DNA from: Puniceicoccaceae bacterium
Lineage (GTDB): Bacteria; Verrucomicrobiota; Verrucomicrobiia; Opitutales; Oceanipulchritudinaceae
Direction: 5' to 3'
Assembly (NCBI GenBank): GCA_040830765.1
Contig: JBFOMH010000032.1
Coordinates: 1 to 64,000 of the forward strand
Length of the DNA stretch: 64,000 nucleotides
Of this stretch, positions 34,549 through 57,300 are shown one piece after another. The notes under the pieces are model-generated. The model was not told where the DNA came from, ran no database searches, and worked only from the letters and a program-made list of their open reading frames with translations. Each line of letters opens with the position of its first letter. Position 1 is the stretch's first letter. Made by a program: the position numbers and the translations under genes.

Positions 34549-34556
34549 CGGTTTGT

Positions 34557-35975: not shown

Positions 35976-36250
35976 GAAATAAAATCTTTAAAAGCGATAT
36001 TTGCATGTTTTTCAATGAAATAAATTCGATTAAGGAAATTTATCAGGTTTCATAATGATTGCCTGAGCGAGATGTTCGAAAATTCAGTGCCCGATTATTC
36101 ATTTCCGTAATAAAATTCATAAGTGACTAATAAACAGTATATTAAGGAATGATTGTTCGAGCTTTCCTTGATTCCATGTACGATTTCCAAGGGGGAACGG
36201 GAAAGCAAATCCAGTCGGGTCCCGAAAACATTGACAACTTTAATGAAATT
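35970..36250. promoter_or_regulatory. AT-rich divergent promoter region with operator-like sites
   Basis: TTTCATGAAATAA 35970-35982, TTTCAATGAAATAA 36010-36023, and TTGACA 36231-36236 followed by TTTAATGAAA. Confidence 0.55.
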
Positions 36251-38225: not shown

Positions 38226-41200
38226 TCATTCAACCTGCAGTTGGGCAAAGCTGAGCTTATTGAGGTCGTCTGCCTGAAGCCGGATAAAGTAAGTCCCGGC
38301 ATTGATATCATCGCAGGTCCGGTTGCGGGAAACTTCCCAGTCATTGCCTTTGGAAGGTGAGAAGGTGAGGGTATCCTCGCATACCAGCCGGTCGTCACGG
38401 GTGGAGATGATTTGCAGGGTCGCTTCAATGGGCTCCTTTAGCGGGGAGCGATAAGTGAAGTTCAATCCGTATCGGTCGCCAACGCCGACTTTGATGATCC
38501 AGTCCATCCGGTTCCCTTCAATCTCGGGCGGTTGATAAACCTGGTCAGGGCGTACCTGCCTCGCCAACACGCAGTACATGGAAGCAGGGCTTCCATCAGG
38601 AAGGCTTGGATTCTGGAAAAGGCTGACCGGCTCCCCGGGCTTCAGGCGGCGCTTGAGAAGGTCGAAGCTGCCACCATCCTCACTCGTTGCTTCCAGCGAC
38701 CAACCGGTGGGAATCCAGTCCTTTAACCAGTCCGGCAACTGTTCAACCCGGGCATCGATCCCGACAAATACCTCCGCGTGGCCTTCCACCATGAATGTGG
38801 CCTTGATATTCGGATTGGCCGCATCAGTGATGGGCGTGCGAATCCAGTCACAACCGCCGAGCCGGGTTGTGTATCTGCTGATGACCGCTCCACCATCACT
38901 ATAGAGTCGTCGTCCGGCCTTTAGGTTGCCGAATGGCTTCCATCCATTTGGATCAGAACTTGAATAAACAGCAAACCCGTTAATGGCTGCGGCGGGCGGG
39001 GGCGGAGAATGGGGTTTCACAATGACCGTGTACATGTCGGCGGATCCCGCTGGGGAATGTCCGGTTTGTCCGGTGGTAACGGTTTCGCCAGCCTTGAAGT
39101 GTTTCCGGAAAACGGCATGGCGGATGTCCGGGGCTCCGCTCGTCGAGAGAGAGTGGGTGGTCTTGTCCCAGCTCTGGAGCCAGTCTGGAAGCTCTTGAAG
39201 GCGGGGATCCAAGGTAACAAAAACATCGGCATCCGATGTCAGTTCGAATTGCAGCAGATCTCCGTAATTGAAATGGGGGACGGTTCTCGCGGTTTGAATC
39301 CATTCGGACTCCCGCAACTCCCAGGAAAGGGAATGAATGGTCTCATCATCGTCGGAGTAACGGGAAACCCCCGTGTCGAGGAATGTCCGGACCTGCGTCT
39401 TTCCTTGTAGCGATGCGGTAGCGACAAGATTTTTGATGAGCCGTGACGCTTCGACTGGAACAGGATTTATCTCAGCGGAAGAAATGGCAATGGCACACAG
39501 GATGGCCTGGCTTGCCTTGACGGAGGGGAAGCTGATTTCGAGAACGCCTCCGGAAACTTGCGTCACCACGGTCTTGCGCAAGGCGGTGTCGTGTCCGGCC
39601 TCCTTCCAGATATCAAGTTCGGCAAGTGCGACTTGTCCGTTGACCGCTACGTCAAACAAGCGCCATCCCGTGCAATCCATCCCGCCTCCTGTCCCGTACC
39701 AAGGCTCGATGAAGTAGAGATCGACTGCGTACTGTCCGTCTGGAATCTCAAACGTGTAGGCCAGTTCATGGCGACCATAGCGGAAGGACTGGAACAGAGG
39801 GTCGTCGACCGTTCCCCTGACGGGGTCATAGGTTTCCCGCTTGCTGCCAAATTGCGGGGGAAGATTGGGAAAGGCGGATGCCCACGAGCGGGCTCCCCAT
39901 GTTCTTCCGGGACCATGCTCCTGATCGCTCATCCAGGTACTGCCATGGCTGTCCACAAAGGTGGGTCCCCCAACATTGACCCGGTAAAGGTAGTGGCGCC
40001 CGGCTATCGGCTGGCAGGGATTTGCCGGATCGGGATCCCAGTCCGGCAGGTTTGGATCCCCGGGCAAGTGATGCAGGGTAATGATGTCGGTGGCGACGGT
40101 CCGGCCCTGGATGCGTGCCTCCGCGTAGAGGACATTGGTCTTGATCAAGGCCTTGTCCCACCGGAAATGCGTCCCGGTTCCGTTCTTGCGCTGAATGCCC
40201 AGTGAGCGACCCTTGTAGCCATTGAATAACTCAACCTCCTCGGCGTTGGAATAGACGATTATCCCATCCTTCAATCCCGGCTCCGTCCAACGGTCTGGCC
40301 AGGTGTGGGATACAATGTAGACCATGGGCTCTGTTTCCGCGGGGACAAAGTTGCTGCGGTACATGTAGTAGACATCGAGGGGCTCTCCCCATATGGTCAG
40401 GAGCCCCTTGTTGTTGGCCGGACCGATACGGTCCCATTCGCGAATCCCGTCACTGGCCTGTTGCAGCTTGCTGCCGATATTCCTTCCCGGATTATTGTGG
40501 GTCACCAGTGGCCAGGCGAAGTGGCCGATAGCCTGCTCCCGGACTGTATCCGCAAGGCGGACTTTCGTTTCCATGAGGGCAGCCATCCGGTCCTCGGTGA
40601 GTGGGCCCTCTTCAATGAAGCCGCCTTCCGAATGATATCCGATGCTGCGCCATGCACCGTATTCACCGACCAGCCTTTGTTGGACCAGCTCCCTGTTGTA
40701 GGCCTGGAGATCCCCACCATAGGTTCCGGACCAGTTTTGCGGGACATCCCAGTCCGTGCCTTCGCCCCCGTTGCAGGTGACGATGGGTCGCTGAATCGAG
40801 GCTGTGGGGTCCATTTCACGCATGATTTCAACGCACTCCCGGGCAAAGTCCGCCGGAAGCTTGCTTTCATTTTGAAGCCCGTAGAGGAAGAGGGAAGGGC
40901 TGTTGCGCCGCTCCCGAATCCAGTCCCGTAGCAGGGCTTTGTAGTTATCCTTGAAGGCCTCGTTTTCAAACCAGATGTGGGCCCCGAATTGGGTCCACCA
41001 GAGGATGCCTTCCCGGTCCCAGATCTTGTTGAACCTCAAGTTGTGGGGGTGATGGGCATCCCGGAAGGCGTTGAAGCCGGCTGCCCTGACTTGGTTGGCC
41101 CGGATGTCCACCATCTCCGCCGAAAAGGCGTGGCTGCCTCCGAGAAGATGCTCGTAGTCGGCGACCCCATTGATGAAGACGGGCTCTCCATTCAGCTTGA

Positions 41201-42173
41201 AGGGTTGTCCCGGAGGGCCATTGAGGTCCGGCCACTCGAGCCAGCGGACCCCGTAGCCTGTTTCACAGGAGTCGGTCACTCTATCCGCCTCAACCAGTTC
41301 TGTCTTGAGGGTATACAGGCAGGGATCCTCCAGTGACCACAAGCGGGGATTCTCGAGGACCGGACTTTCGCTGGTAAAGGTCTTCTTTTCCCCCGGTTCC
41401 AGCATTTCCTCGGATTCACCAATCCAGCAGACTGTACCGTCTGGAGATATCAACAAATGCCGGAGGACGAAAGTTCGCGGCGTGTTGCTGTAATTGCGGA
41501 TTTCCGCCGTGATGTTCAGTTCGGCCCGATCGGCCGAGATGTTGCTTCCATTCCAGATATGGATGCCCCATGGTTCAATCCGTAGCGACCGGGTGATGAC
41601 AAGATGAGCCGGACGAAAGATACCAAATGGCTGGGAACCCTCGGAGAATCCGTATGCCTGCTCACACCCGCCGCATACCCATGGGAGGTCGCGAATACCT
41701 GCCGGGTGATGAGCCCGAACCAGGAGGCTGTTGGGCCTCCCGGGGATGGCCAGGTCTGTTGCGTCAAGGGTGAAGGTTGTCAGGCCACCGGCGTGGCTGC
41801 CGGCGTGCTTTCCATTGAGGTAAATGTCGGCATAGGAGCCGATCCCTTCGAAATATAGGAAGGCCCGCTGGTCCGGGTCCATTTCGGGAATCATGACTTG
41901 CCTGCGGTACCATGCCGTCCCGTGAAGATTACCATGCTTCAGCTGGCGATATCCAAAATAGTCATCCCAGTTATGGGGGACCGTCACGGATTTCCAGTTA
42001 TCCACTGTCTCAAGGTCGGTCAGCTGGGTTTCCTCAGCCGAAAGGACCGTTTGCCAGTTATCCTCAAGTGGAATGACCCATCGGGCCGCTTCTCCAGGTA
42101 AAGCAAAGGCAAGAAGGGTCAGGAAATTGACGACAAGATGACTACGGGCGCGACTCAATGGAAACATCATCAA
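38226..42173 (-). CDS. GH2 (BT0996 beta-glucuronidase-like) + malectin domain + two tandem accessory modules
   Basis: VPHNWD, FRDAHHPH, LQNES, VGEYGAW; malectin (YRVNVGG, LYFIEP, RLFDVAVNG). Confidence 0.85.
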   Translation of the reverse strand: MMMFPLSRARSHLVVNFLTLLAFALPGEAARWVIPLEDNWQTVLSAEETQLTDLETVDNWKSVTVPHNWDDYFGYRQLKHGNLHGTAWYRRQVMIPEMDPDQRAFLYFEGIGSYADIYLNGKHAGSHAGGLTTFTLDATDLAIPGRPNSLLVRAHHPAGIRDLPWVCGGCEQAYGFSEGSQPFGIFRPAHLVITRSLRIEPWGIHIWNGSNISADRAELNITAEIRNYSNTPRTFVLRHLLISPDGTVCWIGESEEMLEPGEKKTFTSESPVLENPRLWSLEDPCLYTLKTELVEADRVTDSCETGYGVRWLEWPDLNGPPGQPFKLNGEPVFINGVADYEHLLGGSHAFSAEMVDIRANQVRAAGFNAFRDAHHPHNLRFNKIWDREGILWWTQFGAHIWFENEAFKDNYKALLRDWIRERRNSPSLFLYGLQNESKLPADFARECVEIMREMDPTASIQRPIVTCNGGEGTDWDVPQNWSGTYGGDLQAYNRELVQQRLVGEYGAWRSIGYHSEGGFIEEGPLTEDRMAALMETKVRLADTVREQAIGHFAWPLVTHNNPGRNIGSKLQQASDGIREWDRIGPANNKGLLTIWGEPLDVYYMYRSNFVPAETEPMVYIVSHTWPDRWTEPGLKDGIIVYSNAEEVELFNGYKGRSLGIQRKNGTGTHFRWDKALIKTNVLYAEARIQGRTVATDIITLHHLPGDPNLPDWDPDPANPCQPIAGRHYLYRVNVGGPTFVDSHGSTWMSDQEHGPGRTWGARSWASAFPNLPPQFGSKRETYDPVRGTVDDPLFQSFRYGRHELAYTFEIPDGQYAVDLYFIEPWYGTGGGMDCTGWRLFDVAVNGQVALAELDIWKEAGHDTALRKTVVTQVSGGVLEISFPSVKASQAILCAIAISSAEINPVPVEASRLIKNLVATASLQGKTQVRTFLDTGVSRYSDDDETIHSLSWELRESEWIQTARTVPHFNYGDLLQFELTSDADVFVTLDPRLQELPDWLQSWDKTTHSLSTSGAPDIRHAVFRKHFKAGETVTTGQTGHSPAGSADMYTVIVKPHSPPPPAAAINGFAVYSSSDPNGWKPFGNLKAGRRLYSDGGAVISRYTTRLGGCDWIRTPITDAANPNIKATFMVEGHAEVFVGIDARVEQLPDWLKDWIPTGWSLEATSEDGGSFDLLKRRLKPGEPVSLFQNPSLPDGSPASMYCVLARQVRPDQVYQPPEIEGNRMDWIIKVGVGDRYGLNFTYRSPLKEPIEATLQIISTRDDRLVCEDTLTFSPSKGNDWEVSRNRTCDDINAGTYFIRLQADDLNKLSFAQLQVE

Positions 42174-43956
42174 TCAGGTATGTTTGCAGGGTGGCCTTCC
42201 TATCGGATCCGGGGAGCTCATGTCCTCCGTCGCCCCGATGGCGGTACTTTCCGGTACGGAATACCAGTCTTTCCACCTCCGGGATAAAATCCGTGAAGTA
42301 GGCGATGCGGTAAAGGACTTCCTTCCCGTCGACGCGGAGTTGGAACCGTTCTGTATTGGAGTCCGGGTTGACGTCGATTTCAATTTCAGTCCAGCGGTTG
42401 GCCTCATAGGTCCCGCCCGGTTTCCAAATTCCCTCATGACGGGCTTCGATTTTTCCCTCTTCTGTCAGGGCAATTTGTACCGGACGCCCGCCATTCGGGC
42501 CCACCACGTCAATTTCCAGACGTCCGTCAATCCGGGAAGGTTTGACCTTGAAGCGGATCAACGCACTCCGGTTCCTCGGGAAGACCTTGGTAACGGCTGC
42601 ATAATCATAGGGATCCGCATCGGAAAGCCTGAGAGCCATTTCCTGTTGGCCCTGAGTGTCGTGAACTTCAACCGGTGCCCACAGGGGGCGGTAGACATTC
42701 CATCCAACGGGCATCCCGCCTTCGGCAAAGGACTCGAAGTCTTCCTTGAAGGCGTTGTACTGGACGGTTCCGTTGACCGGAACCGGAACCCGGCTGACCC
42801 AGATGTCCTCTTTGTTGACCGAGTAGGTCAGCCAAAGGTCATCGCCTGGAGGGTTGCCGTTGCCCGGGAAGATTCCCCGCACATACTGGGGTCCCATGTT
42901 CTTGTAGAGTCCGGGGAAACGCTGCACGGGCAATTCACCGTGGACCGTCAGCAGGTTGCCGAAATGGCGACCGTCTTCACTCAGGGCGACAGCGAGCGGG
43001 TGCCGCAGACGGCTGGTCGGGTTAAAGACAAGGACATAGTGGCCATCATCCGTTTGCTGGGCCCAATACTTGGACGAATTGACGGGAAGGTTTTCCGCGA
43101 ATCCCGTGCGAGTGAATGTTTCTCCCTCATCGATCGATATGGATGCCTGGGCATCCTTGGCTATTCCGACGACTTTCCCCTCGGGATTGCGGTAGAATGA
43201 GAAGGCCTTCCCCTTGACGCGGTAAAACCCGTCCTCGGAGCGGTCTTCTTCCCACCATTGAGCTGTTGCCAGGCGATCTCCCAGCAGGGCCTCACAGGCG
43301 GTAACGAATCCCTCGTCGGGAGATTCCTCATAAAACGGATAAGCCTCCGTCAAATCGGCGTCCAAGTCCTCATGCTGGTTGTAGCGAATAAAAAATACAG
43401 GACCGAGCGACCCGTCGGGATAAATTTCCCGGACAACCCGGCCGATCCCACTCCCATCGTTCGGGCGGGGATAGAGTCCGTGGAAAGCCGTTGCCAGCAG
43501 GCGGCCGTTTGGAGCGACATAAAACACCATCCGCTGGTGGGTGATGGTCTGCTTGCCATCAGGCAGCTGGATTGCCGGGAAAAGCAATCGTGGTGCTTCC
43601 CAGTGGACACCGTCCGTTGAGGAGGTGAAGGAGGTGTCCGTCGGCATGTCATGTTCATTGACCGGTGCGCTGAGATAGGCGAGGTAGAAGCGCTCGTTCC
43701 AATAGGCAAGGTTTGGAGCGTGCAGATAGGTGTGGGCGAGCTTGTCGACATGCTCCGGAAAGGAACGGTTGGCCCGGTAGACTTGAATATTGTGGGTCCC
43801 CACTGCCGGCGCCAGGCCACCATCGGCGGCCGTACTTACTTCCTGTGTGCCGGTATAGACAATCGGGGAGGGGGTCTCATTAGAGACGCAGCCGGTTGTC
43901 CCGAGAAGTATCGAGAGGAACGGAAGGGTCCATTTCTTGAACATCAATTCAGGCAT
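42142..43956 (-). CDS. GH143 Dha (3-deoxy-D-lyxo-heptulosaric acid) hydrolase, stand-alone lipoprotein
   Basis: DGGLAPAVGTHNIQVYRANR, LAYWN, HQRMVFY, PNDGSGIGRVVREI, GPQYVRGI, YSVNKEDIWV match the recalled N-terminal domain of BT1020. Lipobox-like TTGC. ATG 43956 with AAGGA RBS. Confidence 0.8.
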   Translation of the reverse strand: MPELMFKKWTLPFLSILLGTTGCVSNETPSPIVYTGTQEVSTAADGGLAPAVGTHNIQVYRANRSFPEHVDKLAHTYLHAPNLAYWNERFYLAYLSAPVNEHDMPTDTSFTSSTDGVHWEAPRLLFPAIQLPDGKQTITHQRMVFYVAPNGRLLATAFHGLYPRPNDGSGIGRVVREIYPDGSLGPVFFIRYNQHEDLDADLTEAYPFYEESPDEGFVTACEALLGDRLATAQWWEEDRSEDGFYRVKGKAFSFYRNPEGKVVGIAKDAQASISIDEGETFTRTGFAENLPVNSSKYWAQQTDDGHYVLVFNPTSRLRHPLAVALSEDGRHFGNLLTVHGELPVQRFPGLYKNMGPQYVRGIFPGNGNPPGDDLWLTYSVNKEDIWVSRVPVPVNGTVQYNAFKEDFESFAEGGMPVGWNVYRPLWAPVEVHDTQGQQEMALRLSDADPYDYAAVTKVFPRNRSALIRFKVKPSRIDGRLEIDVVGPNGGRPVQIALTEEGKIEARHEGIWKPGGTYEANRWTEIEIDVNPDSNTERFQLRVDGKEVLYRIAYFTDFIPEVERLVFRTGKYRHRGDGGHELPGSDRKATLQTYLIDDVSIESRP

Positions 43957-44953
43957 CGTTGGGTCCTTTTTGTCGCGCCATGCTGGCAGCCATGCGGATT
44001 GCCTCGAGGAGACTGCGGGGATCGGATTTGCCGGTTCCGGCAAGGTCAAAGTTGGTTCCATGTTCTACAGAGGTTCGGATGATGGGGAGTCCCAAAGTAA
44101 TATTCACCCCAAGCCAGATGCCGAGCATTTTCACCGCGACATGTCCCTGGTCATGGTACATCGCCACTGCGGCATCAAACTCACCTTGCAGGGTCCGGAA
44201 GAAGACGGTGTCTCCCGGGTAGGGACCGCTGACGTTGAAGCCTTCCTTGGTGGCCTGTTCAATCGCCGGCTCAATAAACTCGGATTCCTCGCTGCCAAAG
44301 AGTCCATGTTCTCCCGCGTGCGGATTGAGCCCGGCCACCGCAATTGATGGATTTTCGATGCCCATCTGCTGCAAGGCCTCACGGGTCAAGGCAATGACCT
44401 TGAGTATCCGTTCCGGTTGGACGCGGTCCACTGCCTCGCGAAGGGAAACATGTGTGGAAACATGACTTACCCGGAGCTTTCCTGCAGCCAGCATCATGGT
44501 GGCCCCGGGTGACTTGCAGAGGTGGGACAAGAGGCCCGTATGGCCGTCGAAGGTATGGCCGGCAAGATTCAGCGATTCCTTGTTGATGGCATTGGTAACC
44601 ATGGCACCGGCCTGCCCGTTGAGGCACAATTCACCGGCCTTGCAGATGTATTGATAAGCTGCTTCACCTGCTTCAGGCGCAACTTTGCCAATATTCAGTG
44701 TTCCGGTATCCACATTGGCCATGTCGAGAACACGAATAACCTGTGGAGATGAGCCTTCGTCAGGAATCCCTGTAACTGGTTCGACCGTCGATCCTGTTCC
44801 AGTGTACTCTTGCGCGCGCTCAATGATTGTCGCATCGCCGATGACAATGGGATTGCAGATGCGGTGGATATCTTCCTCTTGCCAGGCTTTTGTTATTAAT
44901 TCGGGACCTGTCCCGGCAGGGTCCCCCATGGTGATAGCTATGGTTGGGCGCAT
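43949..44953 (-). CDS. pdxA2: PdxA-family dehydrogenase, D-threonate/erythronate-4-phosphate dehydrogenase type
   Basis: TMGDPAG, STHVSL, GLNPHAGE, MYHDQG, RTSVEHGT; adjacent to a DUF1537 kinase. Confidence 0.82.
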   Translation of the reverse strand: MRPTIAITMGDPAGTGPELITKAWQEEDIHRICNPIVIGDATIIERAQEYTGTGSTVEPVTGIPDEGSSPQVIRVLDMANVDTGTLNIGKVAPEAGEAAYQYICKAGELCLNGQAGAMVTNAINKESLNLAGHTFDGHTGLLSHLCKSPGATMMLAAGKLRVSHVSTHVSLREAVDRVQPERILKVIALTREALQQMGIENPSIAVAGLNPHAGEHGLFGSEESEFIEPAIEQATKEGFNVSGPYPGDTVFFRTLQGEFDAAVAMYHDQGHVAVKMLGIWLGVNITLGLPIIRTSVEHGTNFDLAGTGKSDPRSLLEAIRMAASMARQKGPNDA

Positions 44954-46149
44954 TATTGAATGGTTTGGTCGTGGATATTGCTTAGCTCGGGCCAGACTTC
45001 CCTGGTAATGGTATCCGGCCAGGGATAGCTGCCCGGCTTGATGGTGAAGTTAACCTTATGTTGCTTCAAGGGTGCAAGGGTGACCACCCCCGGTCCCCAG
45101 GCATGCATCATTTCGAATTCTTCCCAGCCTAGTTGCATGGCTATCGAGGCAGCGGTAGCCCCTCCTTCAACAATCAGATGGTCGACATGACCGGACTGGA
45201 GCGCTATTGAGGTAGCCAGGGCAAGTTGCTGGGCCACCCAGGTGGCGTTTCCGGAGTTCGGCTTGGCCTCGGATTGCATCCGCAGGACACAGCCCCTTGA
45301 CTGGGTTTCACCTTGGAGAAGTTGCTTGCCCCATCGCTCTCCTGCAGCCTCGGTCGTGTCCTCTGTAGTGCCCTTGACGGTGACAATATTGGAGGTTTCC
45401 AACTGGTCCAGAAATGCCTGCTGCCCAATGTGGGTTGTGCCAGATACAAGGAGGTATTGCCCTTGGTTGAAAGTGGGTTCCGGAAAGTCAACTGGGGAGC
45501 GTTTCAGGGTCTTGACCAGCGCTTGGAAAAGGCCACCCCCACCAGCTAATAAGGTGGCATCATCCCACAGGCCGGCCCAACTATCCAAATCCTCCTCTGT
45601 TCGGGCATCACCAATAATAATCCCCTTCGTGGGTAATGTGTCCCCGGGCCTGGCCGTATGAACCTCGATACCGGGAACCGCACCTAAAAGATTAACTACA
45701 GCAGCGGACTTTGCCGGATGATGCAGGTCATCAGCGAAGGGTGTCTCGTCCAGGGGAACGCCATCAATGCGGTAAATTCCATCCTCGATTGTCCGACCCA
45801 GATGTGGATTGGCCGGGACGAGAATGGTCCGTTGCATGCCCATGACCCGCATCAGTGTAGAGAGTTCCGCGGCGATGGGTCCACGCATCACTGAATCGGT
45901 TTTCTTGAATAGAAAACGGGTGTTTCCCTGGTCACTCAGTTTTTCGGCAAGATGGCGAACCTGGGCTACTGCTGCCTCCTCCCCGCAGAGCCGGGTTTCG
46001 GTATCATATACGACAAGGTCCGCCTTTTCCTCCACGGGCTGCTGGCTCATGCTGACAATTGACCGCAGGCCCGGCCTGTGCCCGATGGCGGCAATCTCGC
46101 AGGCGCCAGTCAGGTCATCGGCCAGGGCCGTGAAGGATTTCCTGCTCAT
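44953..46149 (-). CDS. Four-carbon acid sugar kinase (DUF1537), DtnK/DenK-like
   Basis: ADDLTGA, DTETR, KKTDSVMRG, EGGATA, KPGSY. Confidence 0.85.
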   Translation of the reverse strand: MSRKSFTALADDLTGACEIAAIGHRPGLRSIVSMSQQPVEEKADLVVYDTETRLCGEEAAVAQVRHLAEKLSDQGNTRFLFKKTDSVMRGPIAAELSTLMRVMGMQRTILVPANPHLGRTIEDGIYRIDGVPLDETPFADDLHHPAKSAAVVNLLGAVPGIEVHTARPGDTLPTKGIIIGDARTEEDLDSWAGLWDDATLLAGGGGLFQALVKTLKRSPVDFPEPTFNQGQYLLVSGTTHIGQQAFLDQLETSNIVTVKGTTEDTTEAAGERWGKQLLQGETQSRGCVLRMQSEAKPNSGNATWVAQQLALATSIALQSGHVDHLIVEGGATAASIAMQLGWEEFEMMHAWGPGVVTLAPLKQHKVNFTIKPGSYPWPDTITREVWPELSNIHDQTIQ

Positions 46150-47059
46150 CAGTCAAGAAAGGGCAAAGGGCGGTTATCTGGTTCTTGATGTCTTCTGCTT
46201 CCTCGCCGCCCAATGTCTGAAGTGGCGGAAGAACATCGCTCCGGCAGAGGCCGATACCTGCCATGGCTGCCTTCAATGCCGCCAGGGATTGTCCCAAAGT
46301 GCGGTTTACCTGGGTGACAGCGGCAACCGCATCCAATTGCCTCTGCAGGTTTTCCGCCTTTTCCCATTGGCCTTGAAGGGCGGCATCGTAGAGTTGCTCC
46401 CACAGTTGGGGTACCAGGTTGCCACTGCTTGGTACGAGACCGTCATATCCAAGCTTCAGGGAATCGACGGAGAGAATAGCTGAACCCATGAAGAGGGCGA
46501 AATCGTCCCGTCCGCCCAGGGCGTTGAAGACTGCTTCCATCCTGCCAGGTGCGTTTTCGGAATCCTTGAATCCGACACAAAGGGGAAGATCGGACAGGGC
46601 CACAACAACCTCGGGGGGAATCGACATCCGCGTTGTCGCGGGGATGTTGTAAATCATGTAGGGCCCGGTGACTTGCTTGTCCAGAAGCAGAAAGTAATCC
46701 CGCATCTCGTTTTCGGTCAGGGGATAATAAGCCGGGAGATGGGCCACCACGGCAGCAACCCCGAGGTCATGATAACGCTGGGCTGCGATAAGGGAATTGG
46801 AGAGACAATTGTCGCCGATTCCGGCATATATTGGGACCTTGCCGTCTGCCGCCTTGACCGCAGCCTCAACCAGTAGTTGCCGATCCTGGCGCGGGATGGA
46901 TGCAGTTTCACCTGTGGTTCCAAGAACAAAGACGCCAAGGTTATGGCGGGCGATTCGTTGGACTATCCGACCGGCGGCCGCTAAATCGATAGCACCGTCC
47001 GCGGTGAACGGGGTGGTTAGGGGGACGATTACTCCGGAGTGATTCATATTCGCCTTCAT
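46115..47059 (-). CDS. DapA/NanA-family class I pyruvate aldolase
   Basis: TPF, GTTGE, YNIP, GFKDS (Schiff-base Lys). Confidence 0.88.
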   Translation of the reverse strand: MKANMNHSGVIVPLTTPFTADGAIDLAAAGRIVQRIARHNLGVFVLGTTGETASIPRQDRQLLVEAAVKAADGKVPIYAGIGDNCLSNSLIAAQRYHDLGVAAVVAHLPAYYPLTENEMRDYFLLLDKQVTGPYMIYNIPATTRMSIPPEVVVALSDLPLCVGFKDSENAPGRMEAVFNALGGRDDFALFMGSAILSVDSLKLGYDGLVPSSGNLVPQLWEQLYDAALQGQWEKAENLQRQLDAVAAVTQVNRTLGQSLAALKAAMAGIGLCRSDVLPPLQTLGGEEAEDIKNQITALCPFLTDEQEILHGPGR

Positions 47060-47062
47060 GAT

Positions 47063-48235
47063 TCAAAAAGCTTCCTCATAGATTGACATTGCAGCTGCCC
47101 GGTCGATGGGCCGGGGGTTGTTGTTTAATAAACGGGTAACCTGGAGTGCCTGGTCAGCCAGTTCAGGCAGGGCCTCGGATGGAATACCGAGACTGCCGAG
47201 GCCTGTTTCCAGGGAGCAGTCGCGGAGCATTTGCTGGATATGTCCGACGGCAGCTTCCGCCATTTCCATATCCGTCCCGGAATGCGCCACTCCCATGGCA
47301 CGGGCGACTTCTGCGTAGCGCGTGGTCGCGGAGGGGAGATTGTACCGCATGACGGGAGCCAGCAGGACGGCATTGGCAAGGCCATGGGGGACCTTGTAGC
47401 GGGACCCTACAGGATAGGAAAGGGCATGGACGGCGGCGGTATTGACTGGTCCCAGGCATAGACCGCCCAAGTAGCTGCCGAGGGCAAGTGCGCTCCTGGC
47501 AATAAGATCGTTCCCGTCCTTGATCGCTGCCACAAGTTGACTCGAAATCAGGGAAATTCCCTGGAGTGCGAAGGCATCGACGAGAACATGGGCATGCAGA
47601 TTGGTATAGGCCTCGATACAATGGGAGAGCGCATCAAAGCCAGTGGCTGCGGTTACAGCCGGCGGCAGCGAACGGGCCAGCTCGGGATCAATAACAACGA
47701 GGTCCGGCACCAGGTAGGGACTGATTACCGCCTGTTTAAGTCCGCTGGCTGGTTCCAGAAGGATGGCGTTTGGCGATGCCTCACTGCCGGCACCAGCGGT
47801 TGTGGGGAGACAAATCAATCTACGTTGGCGTTCCGGCAGAAGGTTTTTGCCAAAGTAGTGGGGCAACCGCGAGGGCTGATCCCCGATGGCCGCGACAAGC
47901 TTGGCGATGTCGAGAACGCTTCCACCACCGATACCAATAATGGTGTCACATACGGAGGCGGGTTCCTCACTGCAGACTGCCTGGAAATCAGCAACTGTCG
48001 GTTCTGCCGGAAGGTCGCTCTTGATGAAGGCCTCAATCCCGCATTCAGCGAAAGCCGTAGCCAGTGTATCGGCTGTTTCAATACAAAAGTCAGCTGTCAG
48101 GATCCAAGCCTTGCGGCTTCCAAGTCCTTGCAAACCTTCAGCAAGCCGCGTGCGTTCACCACAGCCAAACCACAGTGCGGCAGGCGTGTTCAGGTGAATG
48201 GCCCCAAGGGCAGTTGCGGTTTGCGTCGGGATCAT
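47063..48235 (-). CDS. Iron-containing alcohol dehydrogenase
   Basis: GGGSVLD, PTTAGAGSE, DALSH, HAL, PHG, NNPR. Confidence 0.9.
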   Translation of the reverse strand: MIPTQTATALGAIHLNTPAALWFGCGERTRLAEGLQGLGSRKAWILTADFCIETADTLATAFAECGIEAFIKSDLPAEPTVADFQAVCSEEPASVCDTIIGIGGGSVLDIAKLVAAIGDQPSRLPHYFGKNLLPERQRRLICLPTTAGAGSEASPNAILLEPASGLKQAVISPYLVPDLVVIDPELARSLPPAVTAATGFDALSHCIEAYTNLHAHVLVDAFALQGISLISSQLVAAIKDGNDLIARSALALGSYLGGLCLGPVNTAAVHALSYPVGSRYKVPHGLANAVLLAPVMRYNLPSATTRYAEVARAMGVAHSGTDMEMAEAAVGHIQQMLRDCSLETGLGSLGIPSEALPELADQALQVTRLLNNNPRPIDRAAAMSIYEEAF

Positions 48236-49779
48236 GCGGCACTCCTTTCCCCGGATGCTTTCCCGTAGATGGTCAGCTGCTCAACCTCCTCTGGCCGGTA
48301 ACCACCAAAGATCAGGCTGGCTGCATAGCCGACCCCGAAAAGGACAATGTGGCTAAGGACGCCAATGATGATCGGGTTGAGGCCGAAATTTAACGGCAGG
48401 TCAAGAATGTTGTTCTTGGGCTCGGTGAGCAGGGCCCAACCAGTGAACAACAGGCAGCTGATGATGCCTATGTAACAACCGGTTCGTGTGGCCCTGCGTG
48501 TGAGGAATCCGAGGAAGAACAGGCCCAGCATTCCCCCTGAGAGGATGGCAGCAATGGTTACCGCCCGCTCCATGACAGAGGCCAGTCCTTGTTCCGGTAT
48601 TAAAAGAATGGCGATCAGCATGGTCACGATGCCGGCCACCACGACCATGAGGCGGCCAAAAATGAGTTGAAACCTGTCCGAGGCTTCTGGCCGGAGGTAG
48701 TTCAGGTAATCGCGGGTCAGTACGGTGGCGATGCTGTTAAGGTCCCCGCTGACCGAGGACATCGAGGCCGCAAGGATGGCTGCAAGGATCAGGCCGACAA
48801 TCCCCGCCGGCATGTTGTTAACGATGAAGTAGGGGACGACATTGTCGACCAATTGCGGCGGCGGTTGTTCCGTAAGGGCATAGTAGCCGAAGAGGCAGGC
48901 GCCGATAAACATGAAAATGCAGTAGATGGGCACGCAGAGGAGGGCGTTCCAGATTGCTCCACGGCTGGCTTCACGGTCAGACTTGGCGATCAGGTAACGC
49001 TGCACCATGTGCTGGTCGGAAATGTAACGCCTTCCCCAGTTGACCATGTAGGCAAGGATAAAGAGCCATTGGGAGGTCAGCATTGGATCACCTAGAGAGG
49101 TCAGGTCGAAGGATCCCAGGGTGAACTTGCCCGCGCTCCAGGCTTCCCCGACAACAGCCCCGAAGGGACCTGCTTCCGGAGCGAACAGTAAACGGGCCAC
49201 AATAAGCACAGCCGCCCCGACGAAAATAAAGCCCTGCACCACGCTGGCCCAGACCACCGCACTGATACCGCCAATCATGGTGTAGAAGACGGTGAAAAGG
49301 GAGCTCCAGAAGATGACGCTGGGCAAGGGCCAGCCTGTCATCACATTGAGGGCGATAGCCGTGGTCAAAAGGGTCAGTCCGAGATCAAAGAGGCGGTCAG
49401 CAAGAAATCCGAAAGATGCATAGAACCGCCCTCCCAGTCCAAATCGCTTGCCAATGTACTCGTAGGCACTCATGCCCACCGTTCGTCGGTAGAAGGGAAC
49501 GATGTAACGGGCGACGAAGAGCAGCACAATGACCAGGGTCAGGTTACCCAGGAGCAAAATCATGCCGCTTTGGTAGACCGTGGCCGGATGACCGACGACG
49601 GTACCGCTCCCGATGAGGACAGCCATCAGGGTCATGGCTACGGCCCATCCCGGCATGGATTTGCCGGCTATGAAATACTGGCGGGTATCCTTCTGTCGCC
49701 TGGAGAGAAATACGCTCATTCCCAGGATACCCAGCCCGTAGACGATAAGAATGCTGTAATCTAGTGCGGATAAGGTCAC
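48232..49779 (-). CDS. Sodium:solute symporter (SSS)
   Basis: YFIAGKSMP, SAYEY..RF, DQHMVQRY, AASMSS. GTG 49779 preferred because ATG 49836 overlaps the promoter. Confidence 0.9.
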   Translation of the reverse strand: MTLSALDYSILIVYGLGILGMSVFLSRRQKDTRQYFIAGKSMPGWAVAMTLMAVLIGSGTVVGHPATVYQSGMILLLGNLTLVIVLLFVARYIVPFYRRTVGMSAYEYIGKRFGLGGRFYASFGFLADRLFDLGLTLLTTAIALNVMTGWPLPSVIFWSSLFTVFYTMIGGISAVVWASVVQGFIFVGAAVLIVARLLFAPEAGPFGAVVGEAWSAGKFTLGSFDLTSLGDPMLTSQWLFILAYMVNWGRRYISDQHMVQRYLIAKSDREASRGAIWNALLCVPIYCIFMFIGACLFGYYALTEQPPPQLVDNVVPYFIVNNMPAGIVGLILAAILAASMSSVSGDLNSIATVLTRDYLNYLRPEASDRFQLIFGRLMVVVAGIVTMLIAILLIPEQGLASVMERAVTIAAILSGGMLGLFFLGFLTRRATRTGCYIGIISCLLFTGWALLTEPKNNILDLPLNFGLNPIIIGVLSHIVLFGVGYAASLIFGGYRPEEVEQLTIYGKASGERSAA

Positions 49780-49834: not shown

Positions 49835-49880
49835 ATAGAATTTCATGAAATAGGTTCTGTCAACTCTCTTATTTCATAAA
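49835..49880 (-). promoter_or_regulatory. Promoter -35 element with operator palindrome
   Basis: TTGACA on the minus strand 49863-49858; ATTTCATGAAAT 49840-49851; a related site TTATTTCATAAAA at about 49869-49881. Confidence 0.6.
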
Positions 49881-49889
49881 ATAGCCATA

Positions 49890-49921
49890 GAAAAACCGGG
49901 CCGAAGCAATCGGCCCGGTTC
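49890..49921 (-). terminator. Rho-independent terminator of the LacI gene
   Basis: Perfect 11-bp stem AACCGGGCCGA-AGCAA-TCGGCCCGGTT with a U-tract on the minus strand. Confidence 0.8.
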
Positions 49922-49955
49922 TGTTATTCAAGACGATTGAAAGAAGTCAGCCTCT

Positions 49956-51044
49956 TCAGGGATTGGTAACCGATTCCCCGCGAATGAGTGATGGCTTGAT
50001 GAGGATCTCCATGTCCGTCTCCACGTTCGGGTGGGCTATCCGCCAGAGGAGCTGGTCGACTGCCCGGTGGCCAATGAGTTCCGCATGCACATCGATGGAA
50101 GCGAGTGCCGGATGGAGATTGGCGGTCATGGATTTTTCATTGTTACAGGAGATGATGCTAACATCCCTTCCGGCACGTAAGCCCTTGCGCTCGAGCGCAG
50201 TGTAGAGCTGGATCGACGTCCTGTCCGAGGGCACGAATAGGCCGGTCGGCCGTTGCTCCTTGGGGATGGCCAGCCAGTCCTCAACCAGATGGAAGACGTT
50301 CTCCGTCTGGGTGATGGCCGGAAGCGGCCATTGCAGTTCAGTTGGAGGCTCAACCTCCAGCAGGCTGGAGTCCACTCCCTTTTCCTGGCAGGCGACAAGA
50401 AAGGTGGACTTCAGGCGCTCGAACTGGGTCTGGCCGGGCTTGGGATTGAAGAAAGCGACATGCTTGTGCCCCTTTTCGGCGAAATAATCGACAGCCAGGT
50501 GGCTGGCTTCCCACGTGTCGAAGTTGCAGTGATCGCCCTCGGCACCGGACAGTTTGCCCATGAGCCAGATGTGGGGGAGGCGGTAGATATACTTCAGGAG
50601 CTCGTAATTCTGGACCGGTGGCAGTTTTCCCTGGTTGGGTCCTTTGAGGATGAGGCCCTCAACCTTTCCCTCGACGAGGAAGGGTGGAATGCGGTCGCCC
50701 CGCGGGATGTTGGCAATCATCAGGTTTCTGCCCTCATTAGAAAGGGAATGCTCCACTCCCTGGAGGGCCCGGCTGATGATCGGTATCTGGATCAGGGTGT
50801 CTTCCATCCCGAAGCAAATGATTCCGATATTTCCCTGTTTCTGGCTGACGCCGCTACGGGTCGACTTGCGTTGGCGGAGGCGAACGTAGCCCAGTTCATT
50901 GGCTGCTGCCAAAACCCTCTGGCGGATCTCCTCATTAACGTCGGCATGTCGGTTAAACACCCGTGAAACAGTGCCGGTAGCGACCCCGGCGGCCTTGGCC
51001 ACATCGGTTATGGTGGCCTTCTTTTTTGGTTCAAGCTTGCTCAT
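49956..51044 (-). CDS. LacI-family transcriptional regulator
   Basis: HTH TITDVAKAAGVATGTVSRVFN plus a sugar-binding domain (DVSIISCNN, LASID). Confidence 0.92.
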   Translation of the reverse strand: MSKLEPKKKATITDVAKAAGVATGTVSRVFNRHADVNEEIRQRVLAAANELGYVRLRQRKSTRSGVSQKQGNIGIICFGMEDTLIQIPIISRALQGVEHSLSNEGRNLMIANIPRGDRIPPFLVEGKVEGLILKGPNQGKLPPVQNYELLKYIYRLPHIWLMGKLSGAEGDHCNFDTWEASHLAVDYFAEKGHKHVAFFNPKPGQTQFERLKSTFLVACQEKGVDSSLLEVEPPTELQWPLPAITQTENVFHLVEDWLAIPKEQRPTGLFVPSDRTSIQLYTALERKGLRAGRDVSIISCNNEKSMTANLHPALASIDVHAELIGHRAVDQLLWRIAHPNVETDMEILIKPSLIRGESVTNP

Positions 51045-51235: not shown

Positions 51236-51392
51236 TTTCATATGAAATAATCCAGCTGGCTGGAAGAGGAAATACCTCGTTAAAGCCTTTACTAAAGGGC
51301 ATTCAGGCTGGCACAAGGGTATCCGCTAATTCTTGTTGACAATGCCTGCCGGGGCAACCTTTATGAAAAAGGCTATATTTCATATGAAATAA
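51236..51392. promoter_or_regulatory. Two identical operator sites and a -35 element
   Basis: TTTCATATGAAATAA at 51236-51250 and 51378-51392; TTGACA at 51336-51341. Confidence 0.7.
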
Positions 51393-51470
51393 TTGACTCA
51401 TTCGCTTTCTTCCAGAGAGAATACACTTCATTGTTTTCACTCTACCGACTATATATTACCCTTCTTTCTC

Positions 51471-54380: not shown

Positions 54381-57300
54381 AGCTCGGCTTTGCCAGTCGA
54401 GTTGTCTGCCTCACCAGCCTTGCCGGATTGGTTCTATCCACGAATGGAATTGCCGAACAAGTGGGGCAGGTGGTCCATCTGGATCGGACCGGTAGCCTGG
54501 TTTACGAGGTGGATGATAGAGGGAACCGCTTACCCGACTTTTCCCATGCCGGTTACATGGGAGGCGGCGTGCCCTTGCCGGAAGTTGGTGCCGTCGTCCG
54601 GGTCTCTCCGGTTGACGGGGATGATACGGCCCGCTTGCAGGCAGCTATCGACCACGTATCCGGCTTGCCTGCAGGTCCTGATGGATGGCGCGGAGCTGTC
54701 TTGCTGGAGGCAGGCACATTCGAGGTTAGTGAATCGCTCTTTATTCGGGATAGCGGTGTCGTCCTTCGTGGCCACGGTTCAGGTGAGGACGGAACCATCC
54801 TGTTAGCCATTGGGCCGGGTAGATACACGTTGCTGCGAATCCTGGGGGACGCCTCCATTGACTTCGCAGGGGAAGCCGTGGCCATCAAGACGCCTTGCAC
54901 TGTTGGAGCCACTTCCGTGGAACTGGCGGATGCCAGTGGATTTTCCAAGGGCGATCGCATCCGGGTATTCCGGCCTTCAACTATGGAATGGATTGAGGAG
55001 GTCGGCATGGACACAGCCCCCGCGCGCACCCCCTACAAGTGGAAACCCGGCACGGTGGATCTGGCATGGCACCGGGTCGTCGAATCGACACAAGGGAACA
55101 CGCTTGTTCTCGATGCCCCTCTTACTTCCGCCCTCGATGATGGAGCAGGGAGTGGGACGGTTCAGCGCATCGATTCCATGGGAAGAATTACACAGGTGGG
55201 AATTGAGCACTTGCGCATGGTCTCATCCTATGACCGGGAAAATCCCAAGGACGAGAATCATCCTTGGATGGCCGTCGAGCTGGACCATGTCGAGAACGCC
55301 TGGATCGACGACCTGACGGGTGTTCATTTTGTCAGTTCCATCGTGGATGTTGGAGTCGATTGCCGTGCCATCACCGTCTCCAATTGCCGCTCCCTGGAAC
55401 CGGTATCGGAAGACGGCGGTTACCGGCGGCATGCCTTTCACTCATCCGGTGAACTGGTTCTTTTCAATCGCTGCTACTCGGAATACGGCCGTTGTGATTT
55501 CACTACCGGTTACCAGACTGCCGGTCCGGTTGTCTTTCTTGACTGTGAGGCCCGTCACTCCAGCGGCAGGAGCGGGTCCCTGGGCAGTTGGTCCTCGGGT
55601 ATCCTCTTTGACAATGTTACCATAGACGGTGGCCAGTTGGCGCTCGACAATCTTGAAATCCGGTTTGGCGGGGCGGGTTGGTCCGCGGCAAATTCCATTC
55701 TCTGGCAGTGTTCCGCTTCCCAGATTGTTGTCCAGTCCCCACCAGGGGCCAGGAATTGGGGAGTCGGTGTATGGGGAGAGTTCTACGGGGATGGCCGCTG
55801 GCAGCAATCCAACGAGTTTGTCACGCCGCAAAGCCTGTACCTGGCCCAATTGAGGGAGCGTCTTGGCCAGAAAGCGGTCCTTGCCACCAAGGACCGTCAG
55901 CGGTGTATAGACAATCTGGATGTCATTCCGGTCTTTGAGGAGGTTGTGCCTGCGATCGCAATGCCGGTTGTCGAGGAAAAGCATCCTATGACCATCCGCA
56001 ATGGCTGGCTGACCGATCCGGATGGCCTCATGACGGGTGGACGATCCCCGGTCTCCTGGTGGAGGGGAAATCTGGCCCCGGCACGAACCCGCCAGCACAA
56101 TGCCGCCCTGACTCGATTCCTGCCCGGCCGATACGGGCAGGGTGCCACCGATGACCTGCATGAGCTAGCCAAAATGATGAAGGCGCGTAGTGAAATTCAA
56201 CTACGCCATCATTACGGGCTCTGGTACGACCGCCGCCGGGAGGACCACCAGATGATCCGTCGTCACTCCAATGATGTCTGGCCGCCTTTCTTCGAGCAGC
56301 CCTATGCCCGCAGCGGTAGGGGAATCGCCTGGGATGGATTGAGCAAGTACGACCTTGAGCGCTTCAATCCCTGGTATTTCAGCCGACTGGAGCAGTTTGC
56401 GGAAATTGCCGGGACGGAGGGGCTGGTCCTGGTCAATGAGATGTTTTTCCAGCATAACATCATTGAATCCGGCGCTCACTGGGTGGATTGCCCATGGCGG
56501 CCGGTCAACAACATCAACGACACTCCCTTCCCGGAGCCACCGCCATTTACGGGCGACACGGTGAAGATAGGAAACATGTTTTATGATGTTGAGAATGATA
56601 AGCTGCGGGCGATTCATAAAGCCTATATCCGCCAGTGTCTCGCGAATCTTTCCGGGCAATCGAATGTCATCCACACGACAGGGGATGAGTTCACCGGCCC
56701 GTTGCACTTTGTTGAATTCTGGCTGGATACCATCATCGCCTGGACAGGGGAGGGTAATCCGGATCCTGTGGTGGCCCTGAGTGTAACCAAGGATGTCCAG
56801 GATGCCATTCTCAAGGATCCGGCGCGCGAGCCGGCAGTCGATGTCATTGAAATCAAGTACTGGTTCAATACCGCCGCCGGGCTTTTCACACCTGCCGGTG
56901 GAGAGGAACTGGCGCCCCGGCAACACCTCCGCAAGTGGAAAGGCGGTCGCTCCACGCCACGGGATGTGGCGATGATGATCCGGGACTACCGGGAGGCCTT
57001 TCCGGACAAGGCCATCATCTGTTCCGAAATCGCCGGCCTGGATGGCTGGGCCGTGCTTGCCGGGGGTGGCTCATTGCCTAACCTGCCACCGACTCTTGAT
57101 AACGAACTGCGGCGTCAACTACCGGACGCAAAGGTCATCAATCCTCCATTATCGGTCCGCTCCAAGCAGTGGACGCTGGGTCAACCGGGCGAATTCTACT
57201 TCATCTACTCCCTGGATGGTGATTGCAGCCTCCTGGACCTGCGGGGCCATCCGGGCGCTTACAGTGTCCACTCCATCGATCCCTCGACCGGGCAATTGCA

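Follow-up and report, generated by a model that had tools for sequence, protein, structure and literature searches.

Rhamnogalacturonan II (RG-II) is the most complex plant polysaccharide known, and its depolymerisation has been mapped enzyme by enzyme. What becomes of its rare sugars once they have been released? In the literature that we searched, apiose is the only one of them with a described catabolic route. Here we ask this question of Dha (3-deoxy-D-lyxo-heptulosarate), a sugar of side chain D, through a stretch of 64,000 nucleotides from a Puniceicoccaceae bacterium (Verrucomicrobiota; GenBank assembly GCA_040830765.1, contig JBFOMH010000032.1, positions 1 to 64,000), the whole of which is called the window below. 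The window contains an operon for a sodium:solute symporter (SSS), an iron-dependent alcohol dehydrogenase (Fe-ADH), an aldolase of the dihydrodipicolinate synthase/N-acetylneuraminate lyase (DHDPS/NAL) superfamily, a DUF1537 kinase, a PdxA-family dehydrogenase and a glycoside hydrolase (GH) of family GH143. We consider it moderately probable that this operon is the side-chain-D (L-arabinofuranose-Dha) module of an RG-II utilisation locus, coupling the release of Dha to a four-enzyme route that ends in pyruvate, dihydroxyacetone phosphate (DHAP) and CO2. It is from gene context, phylogenetic conservation, co-regulation signals and chemistry, taken together, that this measure of confidence comes.

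Gene content and proposed chemistry of the operon

Genes of the window were named by Pfam and NCBIfam profile searches, with bit scores read against the cut-off of each model. The searches confirmed that tightly packed minus-strand genes for the SSS symporter, Fe-ADH, aldolase, DUF1537 kinase, PdxA homolog and GH143 form an operon (Table 1). The symporter and Fe-ADH genes overlap by 4 nt, a gap of 3 nt separates Fe-ADH from the aldolase, and the aldolase/kinase and kinase/PdxA junctions are overlaps of 35 and 1 nt. A model-made first-pass annotation of this DNA had named the same six genes and described them as overlapping or abutting, and both statements hold, with Pfam and NCBIfam matches for each gene and junctions of −35 to +3 nt from the symporter to PdxA. 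PdxA and GH143 overlap by 8 nt, given a GH143 start at ATG 43956. The long GH143 open reading frame (ORF), which starts at 44061, intrudes 113 nt into PdxA; ATG 43956 is the likelier start and gives a predicted lipoprotein-type leader ending in LLGTTGC. At the symporter, position 49779 is a GTG, and an in-frame ATG further upstream at 49836 is unlikely to be used because it lies too near a promoter-like box. A GH2 gene follows GH143 with an overlap of about 26-32 nt, and with it the operon spans 38226-49779 rather than 42142-49779, as had been proposed. The earlier description of the operon as complete calls for a small correction: a GH142-type beta-L-arabinofuranosidase is required to uncap Dha, and its gene lies outside those coordinates, beyond the regulator gene.

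How could these proteins act on a C7 diacid? In the Fischer projection, Dha of D-lyxo configuration has C4 left, C5 left and C6 right, and a retro-aldol split of the C3-C4 bond yields pyruvate together with CHO-C(L)-C(R)-COOH, or D-threuronate. Because the threo skeleton is C2-symmetric, reduction of D-threuronate gives D-threonate. This independent derivation agrees with the chain from D-lyxo by way of threuronate to D-threonate that the first-pass annotation had drawn, and its wider interpretation of the operon as Dha-catabolic is likewise supported by gene context, conservation and chemistry, with the kinase and PdxA homolog scoring far below the D-threonate equivalog cut-offs.

In the proposed route, the GH142-like domain would remove the arabinofuranose cap outside the cytoplasm and the lipoprotein GH143 would then free Dha, both families being assigned by sequence and both activities carried over from BT1020 of Bacteroides thetaiotaomicron. 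Dha would be imported by the SSS symporter, and Lys165 of the aldolase would form a Schiff base at C2 of Dha and cleave the C3-C4 bond to yield pyruvate and D-threuronate. The Fe-ADH would reduce the aldehyde of D-threuronate with NAD(P)H to give D-threonate, the DUF1537 kinase would produce 4-phospho-D-threonate, and the PdxA2-like enzyme would oxidise C3 to a β-keto acid that loses CO2 to leave DHAP. Overall, Dha + ATP would become pyruvate + DHAP + CO2, a redox-neutral conversion at a cost of one ATP.

The same logic governs the E. coli GarL-GarR-GarK route for glucarate and galactarate: a 2-keto-3-deoxy diacid is cleaved to pyruvate and an aldehyde-acid, reduction turns the latter into a hydroxy acid, and phosphorylation follows. 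That route differs in having a C6 substrate and a C3 product, a class II aldolase (GarL), GarR and GarK from other families, and no decarboxylation. For the last two steps, Zhang et al. reportedly described in 2016 (PNAS) that DtnK and PdxA2 turn D-threonate into DHAP and CO2. The window pairs members of these two families as well, but its cassette kinase and those of related loci, at 369-400 aa, fall short of the model lengths (418-451) and match the C-terminal domain weakly, and the pair is preceded by an aldolase and a reductase through which D-threonate would arise in the cell from a C7 diacid instead of being imported. Both D-threonate kinase and D-threonate 4-phosphate dehydrogenase are known enzymes, going by the names of an NCBIfam model and a PDB entry and by PMC10971088.

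The aldolase (PF00701, 170.5 bits, cut-off 22.1; best solved relative 129 bits) represents an unassigned subfamily of pyruvate-dependent class I (Schiff-base) aldolases and stays below every NCBIfam equivalog cut-off, and we propose that it is a Dha aldolase giving pyruvate and D-threuronate. Residues G47-T48-T49-G50-E51, Y137 and K165 are invariant in 32 sequences and occupy the same positions in chains deposited as DHDPS. We take them to be the GxTGE carboxylate-binding motif, the catalytic Tyr and the Schiff-base Lys, respectively, with GTTGE presumably the α-keto-acid carboxylate-binding motif of pyruvate-dependent NAL-family lyases. Thr142 ('PATT') aligns with the Arg of 'PGRT' in the DHDPS-deposited chains 4icn and 4pfm, an Arg that presumably binds aspartate semialdehyde. 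Three narrower assignments were tried and rejected: true DapA, on a TIGR00674 score of 149.8 bits (cut-off 206.15) and Thr142 in place of Arg; NanA, on scores of 93.1 against a cut-off of 281 and 73.9 against 382; and KdgD, whose models scored lowest (72.2 against 374, 88 against 278). A KdgD-like dehydratase/decarboxylase role was also rejected by reasoning because vinylogous decarboxylation would need the distal carboxylate to be one carbon nearer than it is in Dha. Sialic acid utilisation clusters resemble the operon in architecture, since they join an SSS-type symporter to an exo-acting hydrolase of sialidase fold and to a lyase of the NAL superfamily that acts on a 2-keto-3-deoxy sugar acid; they differ in their lyase, since the window aldolase misses the NanA models, and in what follows it, since the downstream enzymes here suit a C4 acid and not N-acetylmannosamine.

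The symporter (PF00474, about 136 bits; TIGR00813, 201.9 bits, cut-off 184) is the proposed importer of free Dha, a substrate suggested by the genes around it. The Fe-ADH falls in group III of the Fe-dependent alcohol dehydrogenases (PF25137, 171.1 bits; PF00465, 118.8 bits) and reaches no NCBIfam equivalog cut-off, its top models being ErcA (242 bits), lactaldehyde reductase (238) and 4-hydroxybutyrate dehydrogenase (201; cut-off 500), the last of which converts an omega-aldehyde acid to an omega-hydroxy acid and back. No close characterised relative was found among its matches, and we propose that it acts as a D-threuronate (2,3-dihydroxy-4-oxobutanoate) reductase giving D-threonate. For the kinase (PF07005, 125.7 bits, cut-off 25), which has PDB relatives at only 40-46 bits, the best NCBIfam model is D-threonate kinase (NF047819), as it is for all 14 cassette kinases taken from 14 other loci (15 of 15 with the window); D-threonate 4-kinase is its proposed activity. 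The PdxA homolog (PF04166, 349.7 bits) scores 289.5 bits against the 'dehydrogenase 2' entry 2hi1, 275 against the 'D-threonate 4-phosphate dehydrogenase' entry 6e85 and 214 against the PdxA entries 1ps6 and 1ps7, and is proposed to be an NAD-dependent 4-phospho-D-threonate dehydrogenase giving DHAP and CO2.

On the releasing side, the GH143 protein matches PF24067, 'BT_1020-like beta propeller' (285.8 bits, cut-off 27), and aligns with the solved BT1020 structure 5mqr_A over residues 27-573 of the query and 22-576 of the chain (E = 2.5e-113), so that the homology spans the catalytic beta-propeller of the founding member of the family, the BT1020 N-terminus. Its sequence shares 38% identity with P0344, a BT1020-type GH143-GH142 fusion of 1105 aa, over residues 8-609 of the fusion. 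The divergent gene encodes a fusion of a polysaccharide lyase (PL) family 1 pectate-lyase domain with a GH142-like domain (PF22422, 256.7 bits; PF03633, 38 bits), in which residues 462-990 share 46% identity (E = 6e-158) with residues 581-1099 of the same fusion, P0344, itself taken as BT1020-like from its domain architecture and length; in proteins of the BT1020 type, the matching part is the C-terminal (alpha/alpha)6 domain. In B. thetaiotaomicron, according to the available text of PMC6811678 and PMC13501991, BT1020 is the Dha hydrolase and beta-L-arabinofuranosidase of RG-II chain D, its N-terminus having founded GH143, and the text seen reports no link to a Dha catabolic route. The window proteins resemble the two halves of such a fusion but come from separate genes, with GH143 a predicted lipoprotein in the catabolic operon and the GH142-like domain joined to a pectate lyase. 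The stand-alone GH143 is proposed to release Dha from side chain D outside the cytoplasm and the GH142-like domain to remove the beta-L-arabinofuranose cap from Dha. With one in the operon and the other across a shared operator region, both predicted activities for side-chain-D (L-Araf-Dha) removal therefore flank the cassette of aldolase, Fe-ADH, kinase and PdxA genes.

Two other proteins were considered for the GH142 role and set aside in favour of the C-terminal half of the fusion: a 486-aa protein at 27621-29081, which has no solved relative, and a 745-aa protein at 11038-13275 (+), which is pectate-lyase-like (9buj_A, 156.5 bits) and has no Pfam match. The last operon gene encodes a 1315-aa GH2 protein that matches positions 364-1281 of the 1400 in NF049877, 'beta-D-glucuronidase/beta-L-arabinofuranosidase', at 1216 bits (cut-off 1800). 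Its sequence resembles the C-terminal GH2 (beta-glucuronidase) part of BT0996, whose domain roles we take from the accessible part of PMC13501991, and it would lie outside the Dha route proper. The GH2 gene comes after GH143 in 13 related loci.

No Dha catabolic route was found among the matches listed, those for GH143 judged by title or abstract, in the literature searched on heptulosaric acid or Dha catabolism, GH143, threuronate and RG-II with D-threonate, a search that left subscription journals largely uncovered, so that absence from print is unproven; within it, the first-pass annotation, which knew of no characterised route, is upheld. Nor did the literature found on DUF1537 and threonate link these to pectin. 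In passages from a 2026 preprint that deals with tools for RG-II, and from a pectin review of the same year, Dha appears only as a released sugar. The proposal would be a new catabolic route built from known enzyme families.

Conservation of the cassette among 80 aldolase loci

Is the arrangement peculiar to this genome? An alignment of 32 close aldolase homologs was used for a profile scan of genome contigs, which yielded 80 loci (numbered with the prefix L) with 10 kb on either side, and locus ORFs of at least 90 aa were compared with the 39 proteins of the window (phmmer, E ≤ 1e-8). The loci were selected through the aldolase, and many of their contigs are short. A kinase gene, a PdxA gene or both stand beside the aldolase in 66 of the 80 loci (cassette loci below), and both are present in 53. 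Fe-ADH was found in 58 loci, 54 of which have it on the aldolase strand as the next gene upstream, and Fe-ADH, kinase and PdxA occur together in 46; in 45 of the 80, an SSS gene is no more than 8 kb away from the aldolase. When the count is limited to loci with flanks of at least 8 kb on each side (38 loci), 33 have the cassette, 28 of these with all three genes and 23 also with a symporter. By label, the cassette loci fall into Verrucomicrobiota (42), Planctomycetota (10), Bacteroidota (6), Actinomycetota (2), Chloroflexota (2), Lentisphaerota (1), Acidobacteriota (1) and Myxococcota (1), a spread of eight named phyla, and one is unlabelled. Two gene orders occur, each on one strand throughout: aldolase-kinase-PdxA in 22 loci, all Verrucomicrobiota, and aldolase-PdxA-kinase in 30 loci from seven phyla. 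The cassette has thus been kept together through rearrangement, which argues for functional coupling.

The link to RG-II was followed on a quick maximum-likelihood tree of 80 aldolases, namely those of 79 loci and the window, with L069 (190 residues) left out. The aldolase of the window belongs to a clade of 27 rows (Shimodaira-Hasegawa-like approximate likelihood-ratio test, SH-aLRT, 99), 18 of which have GH143. Eight of the nine rows that lack it have at most 2.3 kb of sequence downstream of the aldolase, and the ninth, L045, has full flanks; GH143 is present in 17 of the 18 loci of the clade with more than 2.3 kb of downstream flank. Across the survey, GH143 lies within the flanks of 18 of the 80 loci, 17 of them in this one clade and the other in Pirellulales locus L053, as a fused GH143-GH142 gene. 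Co-occurrence with GH143 had been named beforehand as a check on the Dha interpretation, and the association is there, in two phyla. Tepidisphaerales locus L029 has a stand-alone GH142-like gene directly behind the cassette, after the symporter. When any gene with at least 100 bits against the other glycoside-hydrolase, lyase or apiose-route genes of the window is counted as an RG-II-type neighbour, 36 of the 66 cassette loci have one, compared with 0 of the 14 loci without kinase or PdxA.

What could release the substrate where GH143 is missing? Seven loci without GH143 (L031, L043, L045, L058, L060, L074 and L080) have a gene for a BNR_2 sialidase-fold protein inside or directly against the cassette operon, and in L045 the exact GH143 slot is taken by a protein that combines an FGE-sulfatase-like domain with a BNR_2 propeller. 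Some members of this family have an N-terminal FGE-sulfatase-like domain and some have C-terminal MORN repeats. The in-operon protein of L058, the sole representative searched, has no solved relative at E ≤ 0.01. From their fold and position, these proteins are candidates for a new family of ulosonic-acid hydrolases.

Two further arrangements were seen beside the cassette. One or two Laminin_G_3/Ig-domain proteins of about 700 aa are encoded directly upstream of it in Phycisphaerae loci L025 (4298-8722), L028 and L032 (5640-9879), and might serve in release, as a further enzyme, or in binding. In Chitinophagaceae locus L070 (6211-8819), a second, distant DHDPS-family gene (dapA model, 84.6 bits, cut-off 206) lies between an SSS_b-type symporter gene and the cassette, and could encode a separate lyase for another ulosonic acid such as Kdo (3-deoxy-D-manno-octulosonate).

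Table 1. Features of the operon and its flanks. Positions are those of the window, except in the last row, where they refer to the survey loci named.
Feature	Position	Strand	Basis
SSS symporter	48232..49779 (ORF to 49836)	-	PF00474, TIGR00813
Fe-ADH	47063..48235	-	PF25137, PF00465
DHDPS/NAL-superfamily aldolase	46115..47059	-	PF00701
DUF1537 kinase	44953..46149	-	PF07005
PdxA-family dehydrogenase	43949..44953	-	PF04166
GH143, stand-alone, lipoprotein-type signal	42142..43956	-	PF24067; 5mqr_A; leader sequence
GH2 + malectin-domain protein, last operon gene	38226..42173	-	NF049877
LacI-family regulator gene, directly upstream of operon	49956..51044	-	PF00356, PF13377
Terminator-like GC-rich hairpin + T run, after lacI	49887..49927	-	inverted repeat; terminator scan
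Promoter/operator region (predicted)	49841..49882	-	TTGACA 49857-49862; palindrome 49841-49850; imperfect copy 49872-49881
Palindrome TTTCATATGAAA, two copies, lacI/PL1-GH142 divergent region	51236-51247, 51378-51389	.	motif count
PL1-GH142 fusion (pectate-lyase + GH142-like domains), divergent	51393..54380	+	PF22422, PF03633; GH142 homology
In-operon BNR_2 proteins	L031 3135-5291; L043 7890-9980 (+ three paralogs 13061-20880); L045 13064-15583; L058 5428-7245; L060 5444-7279; L074 5435-7228; L080 7036-8850		

Other possible substrates for the cassette and points against a Dha route

Could the cassette serve another compound? Kdo is also a sugar of RG-II, present on side chain C, where the hydrolase of B. 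thetaiotaomicron is the C-terminus of BT1013 according to the part of PMC13501991 available, and the substrate of the aldolase is unreadable from its sequence. A cassette for Kdo, or for 2-keto-3-deoxy-ulosonic acids generally, would have a Kdo aldolase yielding pyruvate and D-arabinose, with the BNR_2 sialidase-fold proteins of the seven cassette operons, which have no assigned specificity, as Kdo hydrolases. We regard this as unlikely because D-arabinose lacks the carboxylate on which a tetronate kinase and a decarboxylating PdxA depend, and the DUF1537 acid-sugar kinase and PdxA of the 66 cassette loci would be left without a role. Furthermore, the linked hydrolases of known family, GH143 and GH142, are both chain-D enzymes, and a separate trio of SSS, BNR_2 and GH78 genes in the window (described below) suits chain C better. 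A different possibility is a general tetronate cluster, for D-threonate or D-erythronate, placed among pectin genes, in which the symporter imports a free C4 acid while the aldolase and Fe-ADH serve an unrelated 2-keto-3-deoxy acid, e.g. 5-keto-4-deoxyglucarate from oxidised galacturonate, by way of tartronate semialdehyde to glycerate. The kinase and PdxA2 alone do make up the known two-step tetronate route, for which DtnK and DenK are named in the text seen of PMC10971088 and tetronate use is covered in that of PMC13753588, and the loci without Fe-ADH and the two without kinase fit a looser association. However, in the 53 loci with both genes, kinase and PdxA follow the aldolase on the same strand in two different orders, and therefore appear to belong to one pathway with it, even in a survey built on the aldolase, and Fe-ADH abuts the aldolase in nearly all loci that have it (54 of 58). 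From a C6 diacid the aldehyde product would have three carbons, so that a tetronate kinase and PdxA would not be required, and the linkage to GH143, GH142 and sialidase-fold genes would go unexplained, all of which makes a general tetronate cluster improbable.

On paper, the Fe-ADH, kinase and PdxA could also find chemical roles with aceric acid, whose fate is absent from the literature found (the matches listed concern synthesis, structure or unrelated subjects): reduction at C1 would give a 2-C-substituted tetronate, and phosphorylation with PdxA-type oxidative decarboxylation a 5-deoxy-pentulose 1-phosphate, cleaved to DHAP and acetaldehyde. Such a route leaves an aldolase with GTTGE without a pyruvate-type substrate. 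It is made very improbable also by the linked hydrolases, which are of chain D and not chain B, and by the fact that the homolog of aceric acid hydrolase (29127-31190; 942.5 bits, cut-off 950) belongs to another operon. That the kinase and PdxA are a vitamin B6 salvage or biosynthesis pair, a 4-hydroxy-L-threonine kinase with a housekeeping PdxA, is scarcely credible, even though DUF1537 members can phosphorylate 4-hydroxy-L-threonine according to the available parts of PMC7954711 and PMC10971088, and the PdxA homolog exceeds the TIGR00557 pdxA cut-off (364.4 against 290). The pair sits inside a sugar-regulated operon with transporter, aldolase, reductase and glycosidase genes, behind a putative LacI-type operator common to pectin genes, it stays with the aldolase across eight phyla, and the PDB scores given above place the PdxA homolog nearer to 'dehydrogenase 2' and D-threonate 4-phosphate dehydrogenase than to the PdxA entries.

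The Dha route has its own difficulties. The kinase scores 108 bits on the D-threonate kinase model, where the cut-off is 450 (all 15 cassette kinases, at 93-137 bits, stay below it), its nucleotide-binding domain (PF17042, 26.3 bits) is just below the cut-off of 28.3, and the PdxA homolog reaches 323.9 bits on the D-threonate equivalog NF002891 against a cut-off of 583; in these scores the pair departs from DtnK and PdxA2. Eleven of the 80 aldolase loci have none of Fe-ADH, kinase and PdxA, and five of these, from Chloroflexota, form one clade nested among the cassette clades. Two Opitutaceae loci, L026 and L064, have no kinase gene between aldolase and PdxA, a gene that is present in L024, a sister locus. 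Fe-ADH is lacking from no fewer than five Planctomycetota or unlabelled loci that are complete in other respects (L029, L031, L032, L053 and L055), and a Pfam scan showed no obvious substitute reductase in loci without it. In the flanks examined, many of them on short contigs, 30 of the 66 cassette loci have no RG-II-type neighbour, and the adjacency to GH143 comes from only two independent clades. Several phylum labels belong to metagenome bins and may be wrong because the aldolases of those bins nest inside Verrucomicrobiota clades. Finally, the BNR_2 proteins could equally be Kdo hydrolases.

Taken jointly, the proposals make up a broader reading that we hold to be evenly balanced between right and wrong. 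Under it, the operon would encode the first Dha catabolic pathway and give the D-threonate kinase/PdxA2 pair a physiological substrate source in plant RG-II and green-algal scales, the aldolase would define a new NAL-type Dha aldolase subfamily and the Fe-ADH a D-threuronate reductase, and the four genes would be a mobile cassette that has spread through eight or more bacterial phyla and depends in some lineages on a hitherto unrecognised BNR_2 Dha-releasing enzyme, with or without an FGE-sulfatase-like domain, that replaces GH143. If this is true, a gap would be closed in the mineralisation of pectin carbon in soil, water and gut, the natural origin of D-threonate would be explained, and thousands of genes annotated 'dihydrodipicolinate synthase', 'PdxA' or 'four-carbon acid sugar kinase' would receive their right names. 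Dha is also found in green-algal scales according to the available part of PMC1413533, and the cassette may therefore matter in aquatic carbon turnover too. A defined route would also supply four enzymes that are easy to express and open to direct assay.

The LacI-family regulator and the surrounding locus

How might the operon be controlled? The gene directly upstream encodes a LacI-family protein (PF00356 LacI, 56 bits; PF13377 Peripla_BP_3, 97 bits) and is separated from the same-strand operon by a terminator-like hairpin with 18-nt arms that are 83% complementary. Between hairpin and operon, the perfect palindrome TTTCATGAAA lies just 3' of a TTGACA box, with an imperfect copy nearby; a consensus scan of the operon strand found no sigma-70 -10 box. 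The 12-nt form TTTCATATGAAA has three exact copies in the window against 0.01 expected, two in the divergent region between lacI and PL1-GH142 and the third at 6651, upstream of a TonB-dependent receptor gene. Allowing at most one mismatch, TTTCATGAAA occurs eight times in the window against 1.9 expected, a number reached in 0 of 100 shuffles; three of the eight (3621, 18878 and 35970) overlie ATG-AAA start codons and were discounted as operators. In related loci there are 27 exact matches, in 14 of the 80 loci (Opitutales-type), none of them inside called genes and 26 of them at most 400 bp upstream of a symporter, Fe-ADH, lacI, GH142 or TonB receptor gene. The operator-bearing promoter of the first-pass annotation is thereby borne out at the level of the motif, which exceeds chance and is conserved upstream of related cassettes. 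From their position and conservation, TTTCAT(AT)GAAA palindromes are probably the sites through which the LacI-family repressor controls the operon and the divergent GH142 gene, and the occurrence of one palindrome at several promoters of the wider locus suggests one regulon. The palindrome does not resemble the usual LacI-type operators.

At window promoters, TTTCAT(AT)GAAA is found at 6621-6662 (TonB receptor gene), 36239-36248 (GH141, one mismatch), 49841-49881 (the operon) and 51236-51389 (the divergent region). An ortholog of the LacI protein (444-509 bits) adjoins the cassette in 16 Opitutales-type loci, and the GH142-like gene is conserved beside lacI in Opitutales loci. The next gene after PL1-GH142, for a 1007-aa DUF6298 protein (54377-57400, +; 568.6 bits), also keeps its position in Opitutales loci. 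In nine other loci (L038, L050, L058, L060, L072, L073, L074, L076 and L080), eight labelled Verrucomicrobiota and L038 Lentisphaerota, an AraC-family regulator gene comes after the cassette and no homolog of the window-type LacI was detected.

The whole window is an RG-II degradation super-locus, which also contains two GH78 and two GH28 genes, GH141 and GH2 genes, a TonB-dependent receptor, DUF3826 and RhaT; homologs of its proteins bear names that point to Opitutales. An apiose-type module lies at 20023-24719 (-), with OiaK (372 bits) and OiaX (474 bits) homologs at 21983-24719 and genes for an Asp/Glu-racemase-like protein, an SBF-family transporter and an aldose 1-epimerase. Like the proposed Dha route, the D-apiose OiaK/OiaX route serves a rare RG-II sugar with a DUF1537 kinase, but it uses another DUF1537 subfamily and another, RuBisCO-like decarboxylase. 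The best match of this other DUF1537 gene to OiaK indicates that the cassette kinase is a separate paralog with partners of its own. At 29127-35975 (-), the GH127 gene for the aceric acid hydrolase homolog mentioned above is followed by an operon for an FGGY kinase resembling glycerol kinase, a split transketolase and a protein similar to fucose isomerase; this set could encode an apiose transketolase route or an unknown aceric acid route. With apiose (OiaK/OiaX-like) and the aceric acid hydrolase in modules of their own, the cassette is thus not needed for those sugars. A four-gene set of the same GH127-FGGY-transketolase-isomerase type adjoins the cassette in L053, L057, L058, L060 and L080. 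At 60003-63998 (+), the window ends with a second SSS symporter gene, a gene for a 367-aa BNR_2 sialidase-fold protein with weak sialidase matches only, and a GH78 rhamnosidase gene that runs off the window. This trio looks like a split BT1013 (GH78 + Kdo hydrolase) and is a candidate side-chain-C (Rha-Kdo) module with its own importer.

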